Assembly (NCBI RefSeq): GCF_002854065.1
Contig: NZ_CP024147.1
Length of the DNA stretch: 64,000 bases
Direction: 5' to 3' (one strand)
From: Escherichia coli
Lineage (GTDB): Bacteria > Pseudomonadota > Gammaproteobacteria > Enterobacterales > Enterobacteriaceae
Position 1 is the first letter of the stretch; every line of letters starts with the position of its first letter. This document shows, in pieces, positions 14,323 to 40,041 of this stretch. The position numbers and the translations under genes are program-made. The notes beneath the pieces are model-generated. The model made no database searches. It saw nothing but the letters and a program-made list of their open reading frames with translations, and had not been told where the DNA came from.

Positions 14323-16782
14323 TTAATGACAGGGTAAAATCAGGCGCTTAGTCACATCTTCCAGATGTTCCGGCAGATGAATGGCACACGTTTTCTGGTC
14401 GCCCCAGTGCACGGTAAATTGTTGATTTTCATCGACCCCACTCAGCCATGCGTGACCGTTTTCGCCAACCATCCCGACGCTGACACCGCCTTCAGCCTGG
14501 CGAACATCGGCACCGAGCGGCGGGAAATGCCCGTTAGCATCGCTGATAATGACGTTGAGATCTTTCCCGGCGCGGGACGCCAGCGATTTAAAGCCGATGG
14601 CGCCTTCGGTCCAGGTTTCTTTCACCACGTTTTCGGAAACGGTAACGCCGTCAGGCAAGTCGTTCATATTGACCGCCACCGTCGTAGGCTGGTAGCTGGA
14701 AACAAACGGTACCACGGCAATACCAAAGCGGTTGGTGTAGTCAATATTGCCCTGAATCGGAATATCGCCCACGCCGTCGGTGCTGACCATCAGGCGTGGT
14801 TCATTGGTGGAACTGCGGCGATGGAATGCCGCGCCATGTTGAGTCGCGGTAAACGAGCCGCTCCAACTGGCACTGGCGGAAGTGTAATCATTGGCGGCAT
14901 AGGTTCCGGTCAAATCCCATTCCCCCGCCGAACTGAGGTGTTGGTAATTGCCGCTGACCTGCGCACCGTTATCCGGGCGATCGGATTGTATTCCAGCCGA
15001 CATTCCCCAACTGTTTCGTTCATCCAGGGTATCGTTCCACGACATGCGGTGGGTGGTAGTATTACTGTTGTTCTGCATGTCATAACCCAGTCGACCACTT
15101 TCCCCAATCGGTAAGGAGATCGAAAAGTAAATCTGGTTGTCGCGATCTTTATCTTCATAATGGGTGGTGTTGAACGAGGTCGAGACAGAAATATCTTTCC
15201 AGTCGCCAATGTCGACGTTAAAACCGGCGGTAATGTTGGCCGTGGTGGAGGTATCCGCATTCCACCAGCTCTGATGCAGGATGTTGGCGTAGAGATTAAG
15301 ATTCAGCGGAGTAATAGGCTGACCGAAGGAGAGGCTGATGGTTTGCTTTTCATCCTGCGCGTCGGCGTCATTGTATTTGTGATCAATGTAGTTAGCGTAG
15401 CTGTGAAAATGGCGATCGGAGAAGCGATAGGCTGCCAATGAGATGGTGCTGTTGGTCGCATCAACCTGTTTGCTGTAGTTAAAGCGGTAGCTGTAACCCT
15501 GCTCATCCTGTTGAGTATCAAAATGGCTGTCGGCCCAGGTCACGTCAAACGACAGCGCCCCCAGCCAGAGCATATTTTGCCCAATACCCAGCGCGCCGGA
15601 ACGATAGTCATCGCCTGCGAGAAGCATGCCGCCATATAGTGAAGTGTTGGAGAGCATCCCCCAGGAGACTTCATGGCTAATGAAGGTTTCATCCTCGGTG
15701 TGGTGCGACATAGAGGAACGCGGGCGACCGGCAGCCAGTTTATAGCGCACCTGGCCCTGACGCGTCAGGAACGGGGTAGAGGCCGCTGAAACCTGGAAGT
15801 TATTCACCCGTCCATCTTCTTCGCTCACTTTGACATCCAGTGTACCTTGCACTGACTGATTCAGGTCATCAATAATAAATGGGCCTGGCGGAACTTTTTT
15901 CTGGTAAATCACGCGACCAGAATGGCTTATCGTGACCGTGGCGTTAGTCTGTGCGATGCCGCTGATTTGCGGCGCGTAGCCGCGTAACTCCCAGGGGAGC
16001 ATTCGATCGTCGCTGGCTAACGCCGCACCGGTATAGGAGAAACCATCAAAAATGTTAGAGCTAAAATCGGTTTCGCCCAGGGTTAATCGGGAACCTATTT
16101 GCGGTAACGGGCGGAACAGGTAGGTCCGTGAAATCGCCCCGGATTGTTCACGGTTGTCGCCGCTATCGGACTGGCTAAGCTGATAATCGCTGCGCAGACG
16201 CCATGCCCCGGCGTTGAGGCCCGTGGTGCCATAGGCGTTCAGGTTGTTGCTGCTGCTGCCGCTTTGTGGGCGATAAGTGCTGGCAAACAGGTTGTAATCC
16301 ATCAGGAAGCCAGGAATACCGTTATTCCACGTTGAGGGTGGCGTCCAGTTTTCTGAATGCCACGCCAGCCATGCCTGCGGGATTGTAATATTGAGCTGTT
16401 GATTTGCCTGATCGAAAGTAAAGATGATTTCAGGGAAGACACTAAAATCGACACATTCTTTTATTGCAGGTAATTTTTTACGAAAGTCAGATTTAAGTCC
16501 GAAGAGTTCGATCAGCGATTCATTGATACAAGGAATAATTTTATCGCCAGATTTTTGCCAGCGAATTTGTTGCCCATTACTGATTTTATTATTATTAACC
16601 GTAACACTAACAAAGTAATCGCCGGGAGCTACGACGCCTTTTTGATTGAGCAACGAAATATCAACGCTATCCCGAATCGACTTATCGAGAACGTTAAGGT
16701 TAAATTCAGCTGTCAGCGCAGGAGGGGTTACCATTGCCAGACAGGAAAGAACAGAGAGTCGATAAATATTCACGGCATCCAT
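14323..16782 (-). CDS. ybgQ: Outer-membrane fimbrial usher
   Basis: 819-aa ORF, size and position typical of ushers; exact start uncertain. Confidence 0.85.
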   Translation of the reverse strand: MDAVNIYRLSVLSCLAMVTPPALTAEFNLNVLDKSIRDSVDISLLNQKGVVAPGDYFVSVTVNNNKISNGQQIRWQKSGDKIIPCINESLIELFGLKSDFRKKLPAIKECVDFSVFPEIIFTFDQANQQLNITIPQAWLAWHSENWTPPSTWNNGIPGFLMDYNLFASTYRPQSGSSSNNLNAYGTTGLNAGAWRLRSDYQLSQSDSGDNREQSGAISRTYLFRPLPQIGSRLTLGETDFSSNIFDGFSYTGAALASDDRMLPWELRGYAPQISGIAQTNATVTISHSGRVIYQKKVPPGPFIIDDLNQSVQGTLDVKVSEEDGRVNNFQVSAASTPFLTRQGQVRYKLAAGRPRSSMSHHTEDETFISHEVSWGMLSNTSLYGGMLLAGDDYRSGALGIGQNMLWLGALSFDVTWADSHFDTQQDEQGYSYRFNYSKQVDATNSTISLAAYRFSDRHFHSYANYIDHKYNDADAQDEKQTISLSFGQPITPLNLNLYANILHQSWWNADTSTTANITAGFNVDIGDWKDISVSTSFNTTHYEDKDRDNQIYFSISLPIGESGRLGYDMQNNSNTTTHRMSWNDTLDERNSWGMSAGIQSDRPDNGAQVSGNYQHLSSAGEWDLTGTYAANDYTSASASWSGSFTATQHGAAFHRRSSTNEPRLMVSTDGVGDIPIQGNIDYTNRFGIAVVPFVSSYQPTTVAVNMNDLPDGVTVSENVVKETWTEGAIGFKSLASRAGKDLNVIISDANGHFPPLGADVRQAEGGVSVGMVGENGHAWLSGVDENQQFTVHWGDQKTCAIHLPEHLEDVTKRLILPCH

Positions 16783-29750: not shown

Positions 29751-30316
29751 TGCCTTAAACGGTTAACCACGGTCGAAATCTGACTGCAGGCTTGACTGCA
29801 TGACCACAGCCACTGTGGATTGCCGCAACCGACCGCAAGCCACGAATAAGAACGACGGCGAATTTCGAATCGTTACCTGATGCACTGGCTTCCCAGCGTT
29901 TGACCGTAGCGTTAAGTAAATCAACAAAAGCGATGTTCACCGCTTTTCGTCAAGTCGTGCCATTTGTCAGCCAGGATCGGGTCTTTACCCCGGATATTGC
30001 AGCATCGCAAAAATTCTTAGAGGGATATGCTATAAATCAAAAATAAAATCTTTGTTGATTGTTTATCATAATATCCACAGATATGATAAATGATATCAAT
30101 TTAATAATTTTCACTTAATGTGATTCCGGATAATTCGAAAGGCGCTGTGCTTTTCGGATTATTATTATCTGATTAAGATATTTGTCACGCCAGGCTTACT
30201 GGTTTATAAATGTCAATCATGATTCTTATAAATTATTTATTGCTGCTTTGGTTACCATTACTTCGTAATAAGTAATGTATTTTTGATTGTTTAAACTATT
30301 TTTAAGGGACGGCATT

Positions 30317-30418
30317 ATGCGAGGGAAAATACCTAAAACGGAACTGCTGGTGACTTTTGAGGTCGTCGCACGTCATGAAAGTTATACCAGAGCGGCAGAG
30401 GAGTTAGCGTTAACCCGG
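30317..30418 (+). pseudogene. LysR-type transcriptional regulator, N-terminal 34 codons only, truncated by IS1
   Basis: MRGKIPKTELLVTFEVVARHESYTRAAEELALTR resembles the LysR winged-HTH start; the reading frame runs into the IS1 terminus and stops on IS1 sequence. Confidence 0.6.
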
Positions 30419-30431
30419 TAATGACTCCAAC

Positions 30432-30935
30432 TTATTGATAGTGTTTTATGTTCAGATAATGCCCGATGACTTTGTCATGCAGCTCCACCGATTTTGAGAA
30501 CGACAGCGACTTCCGTCCCAGCCGTGCCAGGTGCTGCCTCAGATTCAGGTTATGCCGCTCAATTCGCTGCGTATATCGCTTGCTGATTACGTGCAGCTTT
30601 CCCTTCAGGCGGGATTCATACAGCGGCCAGCCATCCGTCATCCATATCACCACGTCAAAGGGTGACAGCAGGCTCATAAGACGCCCCAGCGTCGCCATAG
30701 TGCGTTCACCGAATACGTGCGCAACAACCGTCTTCCGGAGCCTGTCATACGCGTAAAACAGCCAGCGCTGGCGCGATTTAGCCCCGACGTATCCCCACTG
30801 TTCGTCCATTTCCGCGCAGACGATGACGTCACTGCCCGGCTGTATGCGCGAGGTTACCGACTGCGGCCTGAGTTTTTTAAATGGCGGAAAATCGTGTTGA
30901 GGCCAACGCCCATAATGCGGGCGGTTGCCCGGCAT
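30432..30935 (-). CDS. insB: IS1 InsB (C-terminal transposase domain, expressed as InsAB' by -1 frameshift)
   Basis: 167-aa ORF …[47 protein letters not shown]… matches IS1 InsB. Confidence 0.95.
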
Positions 30936-31129
30936 CCAACGCCATTCATGGCCATATCAATGATTTTCTGGTGCGTACCGGGTTGAGAAGCGGTGTAAGT
31001 GAACTGCAGTTGCCATGTTTTACGGCAGTGAGAGCAGAGATAGCGCTGATGTCCGGCAGTGCTTTTGCCGTTACGCACCACCCCGTCAGTAGCTGAACAG
31101 GAGGGACAGCTGATAGAAACAGAAGCCAC
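30854..31129 (-). CDS. insA: IS1 InsA (transposition inhibitor / N-terminal part of the InsAB' transposase)
   Basis: 91-aa [46 protein letters not shown]… matches IS1 InsA. Confidence 0.95.
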
Positions 31130-31184
31130 TGGAGCACCTCAAAAACACCATCATACACTAAATCAGTAAGTTGGCAGCATCACC

Positions 31185-31655
31185 CACCACGATTTGCAAA
31201 ATTTCATTGTGCGCCATGGCATCGACAATGCTGGTGGGGAAAGCATGCGAAATAAATACTTTTAGCGTAAAGGGTTCTGCCGCGACCACTCCGGTGGTTT
31301 CGGCACCGTGTGCAACAAAATTAATTCCTGTACCTGGCATGAAGAAATTTACCGTTATCAAGCCTAAGGCAATTGACAGCAATGAGGCGCAAATAAATAA
31401 AAAGAGTGTTTTAGAAAAAATACGACCAAGGGCTTTGGCATCGCCCATTTTAGCAATACCTACCACCAGGGTAGAGACCACTAACGGAGCGATAATCATT
31501 TTTATCAGTCGTAAGAAAATCGTCGTGAATATCGATATTTCTTGCGCATAGAGTTTTGCGGTTTCCGGTGAAGCAGTGTTATTGAGCACTACGCCGATAA
31601 TCATTCCAAGTACCAGCGCCAAAAGAATCATCGTGGTTAAACTTATTTTCTTCAT
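31185..31655 (-). pseudogene. Glutamate/dicarboxylate:cation symporter (DAACS family, GltP/DctA-like), N-terminal ~157 codons, 3'-truncated by IS1
   Basis: IFLRLIKMIIAPLVVSTLVVGIAKMGDAKALGRIFSKTL… aligns with the GltP N-terminal region; GGAGG RBS before ATG at 31655; the ORF continues into IS1, where it terminates. Confidence 0.8.
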
Positions 31656-31815
31656 TTTTTCCTCCATCAGGTGCACGGCGATAAATCAGAATCAGGAGAA
31701 GTAGATGCCTGAATAGAGATTCAGGCATCTACCTGCTATTACAACCTTACAAATAGCTGAAGTGTTGAACTGCAATAAGTGACGGGATGTCAGTTGGCTA
31801 AAAGTATTCGGATTT

Positions 31816-36208: not shown

Positions 36209-37597
36209 TTATAGGGTTAAGCATTGAATACTGGTGCGCGCGGCGGCCAGCGGATCGACTCTGGCGACGTTTGCCAGCAGTGGTAATAGCCCCCGGGAAT
36301 CGCGGTAATATTCAAATTCGGTCGGTAAGAGAATGCGTTTACCGTCGTCGTTTAACTCGCGGTATTTCAACCAGTGATGCATATCGAACTGACTGGCACG
36401 CGAGAGCCATCCGCCGGATCCGACGACTTTACGCACGGTTGTCAGGTCACGTCCCATCTGTAAATCGACATTGCCGACGCAGGTGCAGACCTCTTTTTTG
36501 GTGCCCGCATGTCTTTCGGTGGCATAACCCACACACAGTCCGGCCAGGACGGTATCGAAATATTTCTCTTCTGCATTTGCGGGTAAGTAGTCGGGATGAG
36601 CGACTAGATGACGGAGGTAATGATAAAAAGCGTCCAGCTGTGCGGGTTGCTGAGCAAAATTCACATTGACTAACTCTTTCGCACTTTCACCAACCACCAC
36701 TGCCGAGACGCGCATTCCCAGATCGCCTTCCACCGTCCGTTTTACGAAGGGTTCCGGTACGCCGTGTAAAACGGTGTCGGGCGAGAGCGTGTTGGCACAG
36801 GCGGAATAAACATCGGTGGTTGCGCCGCCCATGTCGATCAGCATGAACTCTTTCCAGCTGTGATCGACGTTACTGATTGCCTTGACCAGTTCAAAGACCG
36901 TCCATGGTGTCGGCATTGGTTCTTCGCCTGTTTTATCAACAATGACATCCAGCCCTTTCCCTTTAACGATGCGTTTAAGGAATATGTCGCAAATAGCCTG
37001 GCGTGCGGCTAAAGGGTTCGGATGGTCAAGATCGGGCAGAACATTGTCGACGATGGTCAGGTCTTTATGCCCGAGGATCTCCTGCACCTCGTCCTGAATA
37101 TCCCGGTTTCCGGCATAAATAATGGCGCAGTCGAGTTTGGATTCTGCCAGCACACGGGCGTTATTCAGTCCGTAGCTTTCTTCTCCGCCGTCGGTGCCGC
37201 CGGTGAACAAGAGAATATCGGGCTGCGTTTCTTCCAGTGCCTGGATATCACGGCGGTTCAGCTTGTAGGCGTAATATTGCGCAATTTTAGCACCCGCAGA
37301 GTGAGCGGTTACTTTCGCGGTTTCCAGGGTGATAGAAGGCACCAATCCCATTGCGGCAACCGCCAGCCCACCTTTGGCAGAGGAGGAATACTTCAATGCA
37401 ACCTCACCGCTGTTTAACAGGGGGAGGGCATTATCTACGTTTAACACCTGGTTCAGGCTGGAGAAAAACCCCTTCGCCAGATGATGGGTGGTGGTTGGGG
37501 TCAGTACGTGGTTAACCAACGTTAACGCGTCCCCCTCCCGGGTGAAGAGGGCTGCTTTGGTCCACGTCGATCCAATATCGACAGAGACGATTTGCAT
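36209..37597 (-). CDS. glmL: Glutamate mutase-associated protein GlmL/MutL (ASKHA-fold ATPase-like)
   Basis: 462-aa ORF between glmS and glmE, as in clostridial glutamate mutase operons. Confidence 0.8.
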   Translation of the reverse strand: MQIVSVDIGSTWTKAALFTREGDALTLVNHVLTPTTTHHLAKGFFSSLNQVLNVDNALPLLNSGEVALKYSSSAKGGLAVAAMGLVPSITLETAKVTAHSAGAKIAQYYAYKLNRRDIQALEETQPDILLFTGGTDGGEESYGLNNARVLAESKLDCAIIYAGNRDIQDEVQEILGHKDLTIVDNVLPDLDHPNPLAARQAICDIFLKRIVKGKGLDVIVDKTGEEPMPTPWTVFELVKAISNVDHSWKEFMLIDMGGATTDVYSACANTLSPDTVLHGVPEPFVKRTVEGDLGMRVSAVVVGESAKELVNVNFAQQPAQLDAFYHYLRHLVAHPDYLPANAEEKYFDTVLAGLCVGYATERHAGTKKEVCTCVGNVDLQMGRDLTTVRKVVGSGGWLSRASQFDMHHWLKYRELNDDGKRILLPTEFEYYRDSRGLLPLLANVARVDPLAAARTSIQCLTL

Positions 37598-38046
37598 CAG
37601 ATAGCCTCTTCAAGAATACGAGTATCAACGTCATGACGTTGGTTGATATCGTGGGCCATCAGCTGACAAACATCTTCTAAGTCATGACTTGGGGCAAAGA
37701 CGCGATCAAATCCCATCTCTTTGAATTTGGTTTCCACGTCAGCGAAGTCATGTTTTCCGACCACCAGGTTACCGCCCACATAGAGCAGGATGTCCCCCAG
37801 TCCACGCTCGATGCAGCGTTCGCGCATGCCCAGACAGTCGATATCGCCATGCCCATAGATAGAGGAGACGACAATCGCGTCAGCGCCAGTTTCAATGGCC
37901 GCATCAATATATTCGTCCTGGCTGACCATTACGCCCAGATTAATGACTCTGAAGTCGTGGTTGCTAAAAACGCGGTCCAGAACTTTATTGCCTACTGCAT
38001 GGCAGTCCGCGCCAATAACGCCAATCACAAGTGTTGCTTTCTTCAT
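37597..38046 (-). CDS. glmS: Glutamate mutase S subunit (B12-binding sigma chain)
   Basis: About 149 aa from [24 protein letters not shown]…; cobalamin-binding DxHxxG motif (ADCHAVG); TGATG overlap with glmL. Confidence 0.9.
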
Positions 38047-38592
38047 GGGTAATCCTTTGTAAGACAGAGAGTAAAATAAGTTACACACGTCGTATTTATG
38101 GCCGTTCATAACGGCACAGGTTTAATATCACAGGAGTGTCTTTATCTGACCGTAATGTTGCAATTGATCTATTTTCAAAATGTCTTTCGGGAAATGATTG
38201 TTTAAAGTGTGTTTTTAAATTCCCATGTTAATTCAGTATGTTATGTCAACTAATGTCATGAATGTTAAATTTTTAAAATTAACTTGATTTAATGTATTGA
38301 GATAATTGTGATCTACTTCTAATTTGCATTTTAGTGATATGGGTTTAGCCATGAGTAAATGCATTTCATAAAATTTAAGTCGAATTTCACTGCAATTCAT
38401 CTCTGCTTAATGTAAAAATAATGTTGAAAATAACAAATGGTTAATGATTCATGCGAATTATGACGTTAGTTAGCTCTTTTGATTTTTCGTAAAAAAGAGA
38501 GGTACATGAAGGTGCTACCAGTATGAGTAACGTTAATCAAAGGTTTTATTACGTCTGGCAATAACGCAGGCCATTTTCGCGACTGGGTGGAT

Positions 38593-39015
38593 TTAATCAG
38601 TATAATCCTCATACAATATTTCAGGATTAACTGAACCGTTAACCGGGTTTTGGTGTTGAAATTTAGAAATGGCGGAGTCAATCAATGAAGACAGTATCGA
38701 AAAAATAACTGTGTCAGAACTAATTTCAATTAATCCTTCTCGTTGTTGACCAAAAAAGATATTTATCTTGATTTCATTTGTACTACGGCAATCAATATGT
38801 AGTAATTTTTGATCGCTGAGATTTTCTGTTTCATAAATGTTTTTGGCGATAGTCGGATGTATTGATGCCAGACATCTGCTCAGATAAGCCAGATCCTTTA
38901 GGGAACACCCCGCTGAGTAGAGGATGTCAGAGAATTTTTGTGTGTCAACTGTTGTCTCTGAAGCGTATGTTGCATTGACAGGAAGGGTGTTGAAAGAGAT
39001 TTGAGATGGGATCAT
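38593..39015 (-). CDS. Hypothetical acidic protein (140 aa) in AT-rich segment
   Basis: ORF in a strongly AT-rich region; no recognisable motif. Confidence 0.5.
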   Translation of the reverse strand: MIPSQISFNTLPVNATYASETTVDTQKFSDILYSAGCSLKDLAYLSRCLASIHPTIAKNIYETENLSDQKLLHIDCRSTNEIKINIFFGQQREGLIEISSDTVIFSILSSLIDSAISKFQHQNPVNGSVNPEILYEDYTD

Positions 39016-39096
39016 TATTTAAATCTTTCCGTGAGTAATAAAAATTAATCCCCAGGCATTGTTTAACAATATTTGCCATAGGGGATATATAGAAAA

Positions 39097-40041
39097 TTAA
39101 AGTATTTTATTGGCTTCGGTTAACTGATCTATAACCAGTGCCAGATTGGTAAACATTTTGAAAAAGCGATACTGGCTCGGAATATCTCTTTCAAAGACGA
39201 AACATTCAAGGTCATTGTTTGAAAAATAAAGGACTAGTGTTGCTGATTCGTCAGGGAAAACATGGAAATGTATCTGGTTACCAGAAGGAGGATAGTCCAG
39301 AAGAAGGGTATCTTTGCCCGTCACATACCTGTTGTTGTCGTGGACGCTACGCTCACACTTCATCAGAGGTGTCAGGATACTCATGTATTCATCTGATGTT
39401 AATTTATTAAAATCATCATTCATTTTAAAGAAACGATAAAGTAACAGTACATCCTCTTGCGTAACCGGTTCGTTTGTTTTTAGAGGGAAATAAGCGGGAA
39501 CCAGAAGATGAGGTTCTAATCTATTTTGTTGAGCGCTATAACTGAATTTGAACATAAATTCCGGATCGCTCATCAATTGAGCGACATAATTATGCCTGGC
39601 TTCGAAAATTTTAATTTTTATCAGGTTAAATAAGTCTGTTTCGTCATCCTGTATTAAAAGACATTGGCCATAGCAGCCAGGCTTTTTTTCATTATAAGCA
39701 GAAACGGTTATTCTGTCAGAGGTGTCAACGTTATATTCAAAAGCCAGATAGTGACCTTCTTCATCGCGATTTGTTTCCAGGTTATTTAAATTCATCACAT
39801 GAAGTGTTTGCAATGCTGATTCAATGAGCTGTTGACTCTCTGAGGTAAATGTTTCGCGCTGCGTTGTATAAAGTGTATCAATTCCAACGACTATCCGATG
39901 TGGGTCAAGGATGGCGGCAATCATCTTTATTACCTGCACAGTCACGGGTGATGTCATTGATTCTTTATCTGTTTTTAGAGAATCATTAGATGGCCAACCT
40001 GAGAAGCGATTGACAGCCGAACCGATATTATCAGGACTCAT
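39097..40041 (-). CDS. Hypothetical protein (314 aa) in AT-rich segment
   Basis: ORF with Ser/Asn/Pro-rich N-terminus, no transmembrane segments, no recognisable catalytic motif; co-directional with the 140-aa ORF. Confidence 0.55.
   Translation of the reverse strand: MSPDNIGSAVNRFSGWPSNDSLKTDKESMTSPVTVQVIKMIAAILDPHRIVVGIDTLYTTQRETFTSESQQLIESALQTLHVMNLNNLETNRDEEGHYLAFEYNVDTSDRITVSAYNEKKPGCYGQCLLIQDDETDLFNLIKIKIFEARHNYVAQLMSDPEFMFKFSYSAQQNRLEPHLLVPAYFPLKTNEPVTQEDVLLLYRFFKMNDDFNKLTSDEYMSILTPLMKCERSVHDNNRYVTGKDTLLLDYPPSGNQIHFHVFPDESATLVLYFSNNDLECFVFERDIPSQYRFFKMFTNLALVIDQLTEANKIL

Follow-up and report, generated by a model that had tools for sequence, protein, structure and literature searches.

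Results

The glm operon and the gap upstream of it

The window analysed here, a stretch of 64,000 nucleotides, covers the Escherichia coli chromosome around sucCD and cydAB and carries between those operons an island for glutamate fermentation by the methylaspartate pathway. The operon of this island has the order glmS-glmL-glmE-mal-atuA-like-DUF4387, all on the minus strand, with mal encoding methylaspartate ammonia-lyase, and DUF4387 is followed on the same strand by a dicarboxylate/amino-acid symporter gene. Where the island is intact, as in O157:H7 FRIK2069 and strain A30, fumD (mesaconase) and cobO come after the symporter gene, and then a LysR-type regulator gene in convergent orientation. 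About a fifth of complete E. coli genomes carry the island, including O157:H7, O55:H7 and O145, as do many other enterobacteria. The same gene cluster has been described by Kronen and Berg, who found no condition under which O157:H7 expresses these genes (PMC4682846). The features that frame the present analysis are:

37597..38046, minus strand: glmS, methylaspartate mutase S subunit, first gene of the operon
38047..38592, minus strand: the whole intergenic gap from glmS to an orphan 140-aa ORF, 546 bp, 32% GC
30317..30416, plus strand: 5' remnant of a GcvA-like LysR regulator gene, with its ATG at 30317 and 33 codons that hold the HTH only
30417..31184, minus strand: IS1, 768 bp, bridging a deletion

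The limits of the gap are exact, being set by the glmS ATG at 38046-38044 (minus strand) and by the stop codon of the upstream 140-aa ORF at 38593. A preliminary description of this DNA had reported roughly 550 bp of very AT-rich sequence upstream of glmS, separating the operon from an AT-rich two-gene module, and both points hold: the gap lies between the two, and its GC content of 32% compares with 51% for the whole window, with 300-nt windows going down to about 26%. AT-rich DNA upstream of glmS is a conserved property; the 500 nt preceding the gene have 24-37% GC in 53 of the 53 enterobacterial loci examined. Among 5426 complete E. coli genomes, 1135 contain the gap, in which nothing is annotated.

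A conserved block within an otherwise variable gap

The upstream DNA of 80 loci encoding GlmS relatives was compared. Alignment over the greater part of the gap is possible for Escherichia sequences only; what the other genera have in common is a short core some 120 nt 5' of the ATG. Aligning 28 upstream regions with MAFFT brings out a series of invariant columns, TTnTGAAAATAGATCAATTGC, in AT-rich surroundings that otherwise do not align. The information content of 51 unique upstream sequences from about 15 genera, anchored without gaps on ATCAATTG, is high across a block of about 34 bp, and the gap can be divided as follows:

38161..38194, minus strand: conserved operator block TTTCCCGAAAGACATTTTGAAAATAGATCAATTG, about 34 bp, predicted to lie at -66 to -33
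38165..38177, minus strand: T-N11-A box TGAAAATAGATCA with the dyad TGA-N7-TCA, centred at about -43 and part of an invariant 17-mer at 38161-38177
38203..38592, no strand: fast-evolving AT-rich spacer with no conserved element

The invariant 17-mer, TGAAAATAGATCAATTG (38161-38177, minus strand), is present in exact form once, on the glmS strand, in 39 of 39 Enterobacteriaceae-type loci, mostly about 100-135 nt 5' of the ATG, with an insertion at locus L014 that places it at 232 nt; the window holds no second match to it, even with 3 mismatches. A related block, CAAGAT..CTGAnAATAnATCAATTG, occurs in Yersinia, Hafnia, Budvicia, Morganella, Yokenella and two unclassified enterobacteria. The T and the A of the T-N11-A box are found in 51/51 sequences (100%), and the TGA and TCA arms in most, the left arm being TTA in Morganella and TCA in Yokenella. 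The block was found only in enterobacterial loci (L004-L055 and L057); four more distant loci that we checked have no good match. Its conservation is not neutral or residual similarity, because glmS itself has diverged strongly at third-codon positions, where E. coli and the other genera share 44-56% identity and only 8% of positions are invariant across 10 taxa.

The same contrast is seen at shorter evolutionary distance. Among 10 E. coli-level variants, at most about 11% diverged, the block has 0-1 variable sites, and counts per 30 nt amount to 0-3 in 38053-38202 and to 3-11 in 38203-38592, so that the former stretch resembles glmS coding sequence and the latter is as variable as the upstream orphan gene. 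At the level of whole genomes, a 56-bp stretch containing the block is at least 99% identical in 1121 of the 1135 E. coli genomes and single-copy in each, whereas the whole gap reaches at least 99% identity in 3. The contrast in variable sites suggests that only the proximal ~150 bp (38047-38202) are functional and that the distal ~390 bp are spacer.

The history of the neighbouring genes bears on the distal part as well. The upstream orphan genes (140 and 314 aa), for whose proteins no family was found in Pfam or NCBIfam, are absent outside E. coli, and in Citrobacter, Klebsiella, Salmonella arizonae, Pseudescherichia and E. whittamii glmS faces cydA directly. The distal ~140 bp of the gap are missing wherever the E. 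coli-specific two-gene module is missing, which indicates that the module is an E. coli-specific insertion and that these ~140 bp are its flank rather than part of the glm control region. Repeats within the gap amount to nothing beyond the short two-copy matches typical of AT-rich DNA.

Could the gap instead encode a small protein? A 55-aa ORF at 38233-38400 on the operon strand is open in the window and in O157:H7, but it is frameshifted in Escherichia sp. MOD1, carries stops in E. whittamii and E1V33, differs between E. coli variants mostly by amino-acid-changing substitutions, and sits in the fast-evolving part of the gap. With its frame not conserved in close relatives, we reject a protein-coding role, which has hardly any credibility left.

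A predicted promoter at a fixed distance from the block

Downstream of the block, conservation resumes in a hexamer that would serve as the -10 element of a promoter whose -35 element overlaps the end of the block:

38158..38163, minus strand: predicted -35 hexamer TTGCAA, with the TTG invariant at about 2 bits per position (51 loci)
38135..38140, minus strand: predicted -10 hexamer GACACT, with invariant A-11 and T-7 at 2.0 bits each
38126..38130, minus strand: predicted transcription start, at about 38128, deduced from the position of the -10
38047..38125, minus strand: predicted 5'UTR of about 82 nt, with the Shine-Dalgarno sequence AAAGGA at 38053-38058 and a small hairpin, GCCGTTATGAACGGC, at 38101-38115

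The two hexamers are separated by exactly 17 nt, with no indel, in 51/51 loci, and the sequence of this spacer varies freely, its information content of mostly 0.2-0.6 bits forming a trough between the block and the -10. It is this fixed spacing, together with the invariant A and T at positions 2 and 6 of the hexamer, that identifies the TTG at the end of the block as the -35 and the hexamer as the -10. The -35, the 17-nt spacer and the A-11/T-7 pair are the sequence features of a sigma-70 promoter. The -10 reads GACACT in E. coli, GAAACT in Citrobacter, CACATT in Yersinia and Morganella and CATATT in Yokenella, matching the consensus at 3-4 of six positions (3/6 for GACACT). A consensus promoter scan returned 11 promoter-like sites against 12.3 expected, none of them the conserved promoter, which the scan missed because GACACT agrees with the consensus at just three positions. 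Such a poor -10 argues for dependence on an activator. A conserved TATTAA 13 nt further downstream in Enterobacteriaceae is an alternative -10 candidate.

A T-N11-A motif with imperfect dyad symmetry is the defining box of LTTRs, whose sites typically lie at about -70 to -35 (PMC11495319). The block combines a T-N11-A dyad with a span that, given the start we infer, runs from -66 to -33 and touches the -35. Across loci the block lies 92 to 288 nt from the ATG but at a constant distance from the -10, and is therefore tied to the promoter rather than to an RNA fold or the coding sequence. We conclude that positions 38194-38161 with the adjoining -35 and -10 very likely constitute an operator plus an activator-dependent sigma-70 promoter. 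This bears directly on the preliminary description, which had recognised no regulator site in the gap and had held that view for as long as no well-defined one came to light: footprinting across 51 loci reveals a conserved operator-plus-promoter at 38135-38194, with a T-N11-A dyad and -35 and -10 elements. The wording 'leader/promoter region', which it applied to the entire gap, is right in that the gap holds the promoter and the leader of the operon, but the predicted leader RNA takes up only about 82 nt, and not 550.

Expression data are available for EDL933 in the form of Cappable-seq tables covering LB, minimal medium, LB with malic acid and LB with NaCl, each in exponential and stationary phase (eight conditions; PMC10469882). 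In these eight conditions the glm genes have no TSS, nor is there a start at the predicted position (PMC10469882). This agrees with a promoter that needs activator and effector to be active, and it is uninformative on the predicted start itself. In the gene-TSS table the regulator has one TSS, in one condition, and the next entry is the 314-aa orphan gene.

An alternative is that the operon has no dedicated control. The block could be a UP-element-like part of a constitutive promoter silenced by H-NS, or the operon could be read through from the orphan genes. The region is indeed very AT-rich, positions -57 to -47 partly match a distal UP subsite on inspection, a consensus scan detected no terminator-like site between the 140-aa ORF and glmS, and EDL933 has TSSs at the orphan genes, at 855177 and at 853892, the latter inside the 140-aa ORF. 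Yet neither UP elements nor H-NS sites need invariant G/C-containing positions such as GATCAATTG, and the Yersinia-type block fits the UP consensus poorly. Read-through is at odds with a block that is universal and orphan genes that are absent outside E. coli, and the -10, at 3/6, is too weak for a constitutive promoter. The H-NS nucleation motif TCGATAAATT, allowing up to two mismatches, has two occurrences in the 546 bp, where the rate over the whole window predicts about 0.8, and by this comparison it is not enriched in the gap. On balance we regard the absence of dedicated control as improbable. Silencing of the AT-rich gap by H-NS, as a layer on top of a specific operator, is plausible from base composition.

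The leader shows no sign of a riboswitch

Genes for B12-dependent functions are often under riboswitch control, and the methylaspartate pathway is B12-dependent. Together with the small hairpin in the leader, this makes it reasonable to ask whether the conserved sequence acts as RNA, as a riboswitch or leader element responding to B12 or glutamate, as part of a longer 5'UTR with its start further upstream. The preliminary description, which saw no cobalamin riboswitch by eye, is borne out by the covariance-model scan: no Rfam family, the cobalamin riboswitch included, reaches its gathering score in the part of the window near the gap, the cobalamin riboswitch has no such hit in the window at all, and at E<=10 the interval 37900-38800 gives nothing but a chance snoRNA match. 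Nor do nine orthologous loci from other genera contain a cobalamin riboswitch or any other Rfam family. RNAalifold, applied from the -10 hexamer to the ATG, yields no consensus structure (-0.35 kcal/mol, 0 compensatory pairs), and shuffled sequences fold as well as the leader of E. coli does (MFE z = 0.09). The predicted 5'UTR is conserved within E. coli and not between genera. The conserved bases form one contiguous invariant block and not helices, the block keeps its place relative to the -10-like hexamer while lying 92-288 nt from the ATG, and in Yokenella the same block precedes an unrelated operon. We therefore reject a structured cis-regulatory leader RNA, on the folding results in particular, and judge a role of the block as RNA to be very improbable. 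Control of the glm genes appears to act at transcription initiation, through a protein.

The linked LysR-type regulator and its loss

Which protein would bind the block? A literature search found no characterised regulator of the enterobacterial methylaspartate pathway. The island's regulator, WP_001214266, belongs to the GcvA/DsdC/AmpR-like LysR subfamily, and an orthologue is linked to the pathway in at least four arrangements, across eight genera and two metagenomic contigs. In E. coli, Klebsiella, Citrobacter, Lelliottia, Buttiauxella and Pseudescherichia the gene is convergent after cobO, and in islands of the E. coli type it lies about 10 kb from the glm promoter. The Yersinia orthologue (64% identity) is upstream of and divergent from sumT, the Yokenella orthologue (57% identity) is upstream of and divergent from a btuCD/btuB/btuF-like operon, and in the two metagenomic contigs the regulator stands beside fumD-cobO, at the far end of the cob operon. 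Weaker operator-like sites are seen about 100 nt upstream of fumD in these two contigs.

The most telling result on the identity of the binding protein comes from Yokenella. There, the intergenic region from which the regulator gene and the B12-uptake-like genes diverge contains the block a second time (26 of 29 nt identical, TCAAGTTGTCTTCAwwTTTTwTCAATTGC), and 17 nt beyond this copy stands a -10-like TATATA that precedes the B12-uptake-like genes. The corresponding intergenic region of a related metagenomic contig is well conserved only in the block and its -10. A candidate operator that has been duplicated into the promoter region of the linked regulator points to that regulator as the protein that recognises it, and we infer that the linked GcvA-like LysR protein is probably the activator at the conserved operator, a reading that we hold with fair but not full confidence.

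Several observations weigh against this assignment. The best-conserved dyad of the glm block is centred at about -43, where LTTRs usually have their weaker activation site, and not near -65. Moreover, the E. coli-type regulator gene is convergent and some 10 kb away, with no copy of the operator upstream of it. More broadly, neither the islands of E. coli, Klebsiella, Citrobacter, Buttiauxella, Lelliottia and Pseudescherichia, searched for a second operator copy, nor the upstream regions of seven LTTR genes contain one above shuffled background. An 11-nt identity, AATAGATCAAT, upstream of the Klebsiella LTTR gene and a related element in Citrobacter did not generalise, and we set them aside.

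A real operator might be bound by some other chromosomal regulator common to the Enterobacterales, for example a response regulator or a global anaerobic or amino-acid regulator, and the LysR protein would then control only fumD-cobO or B12 genes. Besides the missing operator copy at the promoter of the E. coli LTTR gene itself, such a regulator would account for the block being kept in Morganella and Budvicia, where we saw no orthologue of the regulator within 10 kb of glmS, and a protein search turned up no named Morganella orthologue. The upstream half of the block also resembles a direct repeat, GAAAG.../GAAAA..., spaced by about 12 bp, and methylaspartate ammonia-lyase of enterobacteria is said to be induced anaerobically, in work of Kato and Asano from 1997. 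The placement in the metagenomic contigs shows, however, that having no regulator within 10 kb in Morganella and Budvicia does not amount to its absence from the genome, as the gene may lie beyond that distance, at the opposite end of the cob operon.

Sites of the known regulators fit the block poorly. A class II site for CRP or FNR reads TGTGA-N6-TCACA or TTGAT-N4-ATCAA and is centred at -41.5. The arms of the glm dyad, TGA-N7-TCA, are 7 nt apart in all loci, and in the correct register 2/5 left-half positions match on inspection, so we reject such a site; proteins of the CRP/FNR family are unlikely because of this spacing of 7 and not 6 nt. By inspection we recognised no match to the ArcA, NarL, IHF, ArgR, Lrp or Fur consensus, and readings of the block as a site for any of these proteins, for CRP or FNR, for sigma-54 or as a UP element were rejected or are weak on spacing or mismatches. 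Against a shared chromosomal regulator, and in keeping with a local one dedicated to the operon, E. coli genomes carry the site only once, and the Yokenella duplicate lies in the divergent promoter of the LTTR gene. Taken together, we think a different regulator unlikely, though likelier than the other alternatives.

In the strain studied here the regulator is gone. The preliminary description had a LysR-type gene truncated by IS1, and this is correct: the gene starts with its ATG at 30317 and is cut after 33 codons by IS1 (30417-31184), which joins regulator codon 33 to about codon 165 of the symporter gene, with loss of the remainder of the LysR gene, cobO, fumD and most of the symporter gene (its 3' part). 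This junction is found in 1 of 5426 complete E. coli genomes. The preliminary description treated the control of the operon as open, which is supported: with the linked LysR regulator destroyed by IS1, control may be lost in this strain. As IS1 removed the regulator, the glm promoter is predicted to be orphaned and silent here.

Discussion

The gap upstream of glmS combines a conserved block of about 34 bp, a fixed promoter geometry and a leader with neither a known RNA family nor a conserved or unusually stable structure, next to a pathway that is linked to a LysR-type gene in several arrangements. We consider it probable, from comparative sequence data, that the gap comprises an LTTR operator and a weak, activator-dependent sigma-70 promoter, orphaned in this strain, with a distal part that is spacer. 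In this model the GcvA-like LysR regulator, encoded with the pathway genes, would bind the operator at -66 to -33, of which the promoter-proximal half is the invariant T-N11-A box TGAAAATAGATCA, so that the operator is fused to the upstream edge of the promoter. Together with a co-inducer, the regulator would recruit RNA polymerase to the poor -10 or reposition it there, acting as an activator rather than as a repressor. Activation would then switch on glmS-glmL-glmE-mal-atuA-DUF4387 through a short unstructured leader, without a riboswitch, and the distal AT-rich spacer of about 390 bp may add silencing of the H-NS type.

How does this arrangement compare with known systems? The promoters activated by GcvA at gcvTHP and gcvB, by BenM at benA and by DsdC at dsdXA share with glm the T-N11-A box with imperfect dyad symmetry, a conserved, putatively protein-binding stretch at about -65 to -35 and a weak core promoter, as well as the linkage of a regulator of the GcvA/DsdC subfamily to a catabolic amino-acid pathway. 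Yokenella has the classical divergent arrangement of regulator and target. The E. coli glm system differs in that its regulator gene is convergent and about 10 kb away, with no autoregulatory copy of the site found, in that the best-conserved dyad is promoter-proximal (about -43) and not distal, and in that the glm site is known from sequence. Operons under a cobalamin riboswitch (RF00174 clan, as in the btuB and cob leaders) have in common with glm the B12-dependent enzymes near cob, btu and cobO genes, but glm has neither a covariance-model match nor a conserved or stable leader structure.

The clostridial mutS/glmS-mutL-mutE-mal clusters have identical enzymes and the same order glmS-glmL-glmE-mal (PMC4682846), to which the enterobacterial cluster adds the AtuA-like and DUF4387 genes, the transporter, FumD, CobO and the LTTR. 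H-NS-silenced islands of E. coli resemble the glm island in low GC (26-36%), a horizontally acquired context and no detectable expression in the laboratory; glm differs from them in its lack of motif enrichment and in that its conserved part is a specific operator and not generic AT-rich DNA.

More tentatively, and with considerable doubt, the block might be the operator of an undescribed protein-based regulon, in which a GcvA-like LysR protein takes the place of a riboswitch for a B12-dependent pathway. If so, glutamate mutase, mesaconase and adenosyltransferase and, in Yokenella, B12 uptake would be co-activated, and the signal would be glutamate, methylaspartate, mesaconate or the corrinoid itself. 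Such a regulon would account for the silence of the island under all conditions tested to date.

For the strain studied here, the loss of the probable activator together with fumD, cobO and the transporter means that the remaining glm genes are probably a transcriptionally orphaned, decaying and silent remnant. For the enterobacteria at large, the operator-promoter located here and its candidate regulator make the regulation of a widespread glutamate-fermentation island directly testable, and the operator sequence may serve as a marker for finding the remainder of the regulon.

Deletion and unassigned sequence within the island

In the island of the window, an IS1-mediated deletion (30317–31676) has joined codon 33 of the LysR regulator gene to approximately codon 165 of the symporter gene, with the loss of cobO and fumD. 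The exact LysR/IS1/symporter junction is present in only one of 5426 complete E. coli genomes, and independent IS1 insertions have occurred in the same island in other strains, inside the regulator gene and in the symporter–fumD interval. Two further parts of the window carry short or orphan reading frames:

29755–30046: short ORFs in GC-rich DNA, flanked on one side by the sucD terminator/SdhX region and on the other by the AT-rich promoter of the LysR gene
38593–40041, minus strand: two AT-rich orphan genes of 140 and 314 aa

The GC-rich stretch looks like what is left of a gene that lay at the edge of the island. The orphan proteins have no match in Pfam or NCBIfam; the gene pair is specific to E. 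coli and evolving fast, and its insertion site is the cydA/glmS interval. Cappable-seq tables for EDL933 place one transcription start site upstream of the 314-aa gene and another just inside the 140-aa ORF. In the O157:H7 strain FRIK2069, the RefSeq locus tag A8V30_RS04325 is missing from the numbering exactly at the gap between glmS and the 140-aa ORF, suggesting an earlier annotation at this place that was later withdrawn.

Conserved elements in related islands

Two conserved elements were found at other positions in related islands:

L084 (a comparison locus), approximately 14640–14660, and also L088, L090 and L091: palindrome ATACAG-N7-CTGTAT, in the gap between the DUF4387 and symporter genes
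L051 (Klebsiella and Citrobacter DNA upstream of the LysR gene), about −112 from the ATG: ATCATGGA(A/G)T(A/G)GATCAATGACA, in K. oxytoca and C. amalonaticus

The palindrome, which may serve as a second site of regulation or form a hairpin in the RNA, is conserved in this internal intergenic region of Klebsiella, Citrobacter, Buttiauxella and Lelliottia islands and is absent from the equivalent E. coli gap (window 31677–31815). The Klebsiella copy of the LysR-upstream element has 11 nt (AATAGATCAAT) in common with the glmS operator; the element was not found in E. coli, Lelliottia or Pseudescherichia.

Connections to B12 genes

Cob operons usually carry a cobalamin riboswitch. Upstream of cbiA, none was detected in Morganella (L086 2456–3234), even at E ≤ 1, or, at the gathering score, in Budvicia (L098 4816–5476). 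Three other loci show pathway genes or the glm operator next to B12 genes:

L099 10001–13753 and L100 10001–15906: LysR orthologue with fumD-cobO, on two metagenomic Yersinia-like contigs
L097 4577–4612 and 9443–9478: glm operator copies in Yokenella

On both metagenomic contigs, the LysR orthologue and fumD-cobO directly follow cobT, the distal end of the cob operon in these contigs, so that methylaspartate pathway genes can be divided between the two ends of the cluster for B12 biosynthesis. In Yokenella, the duplicate glm operator lies upstream of an operon of btuC/btuD/TonB-receptor/btuF-like genes, with the LysR regulator gene in divergent orientation to it. This placement before genes resembling those for B12 uptake suggests that glutamate mutase and B12 uptake form a single regulon in Yokenella.
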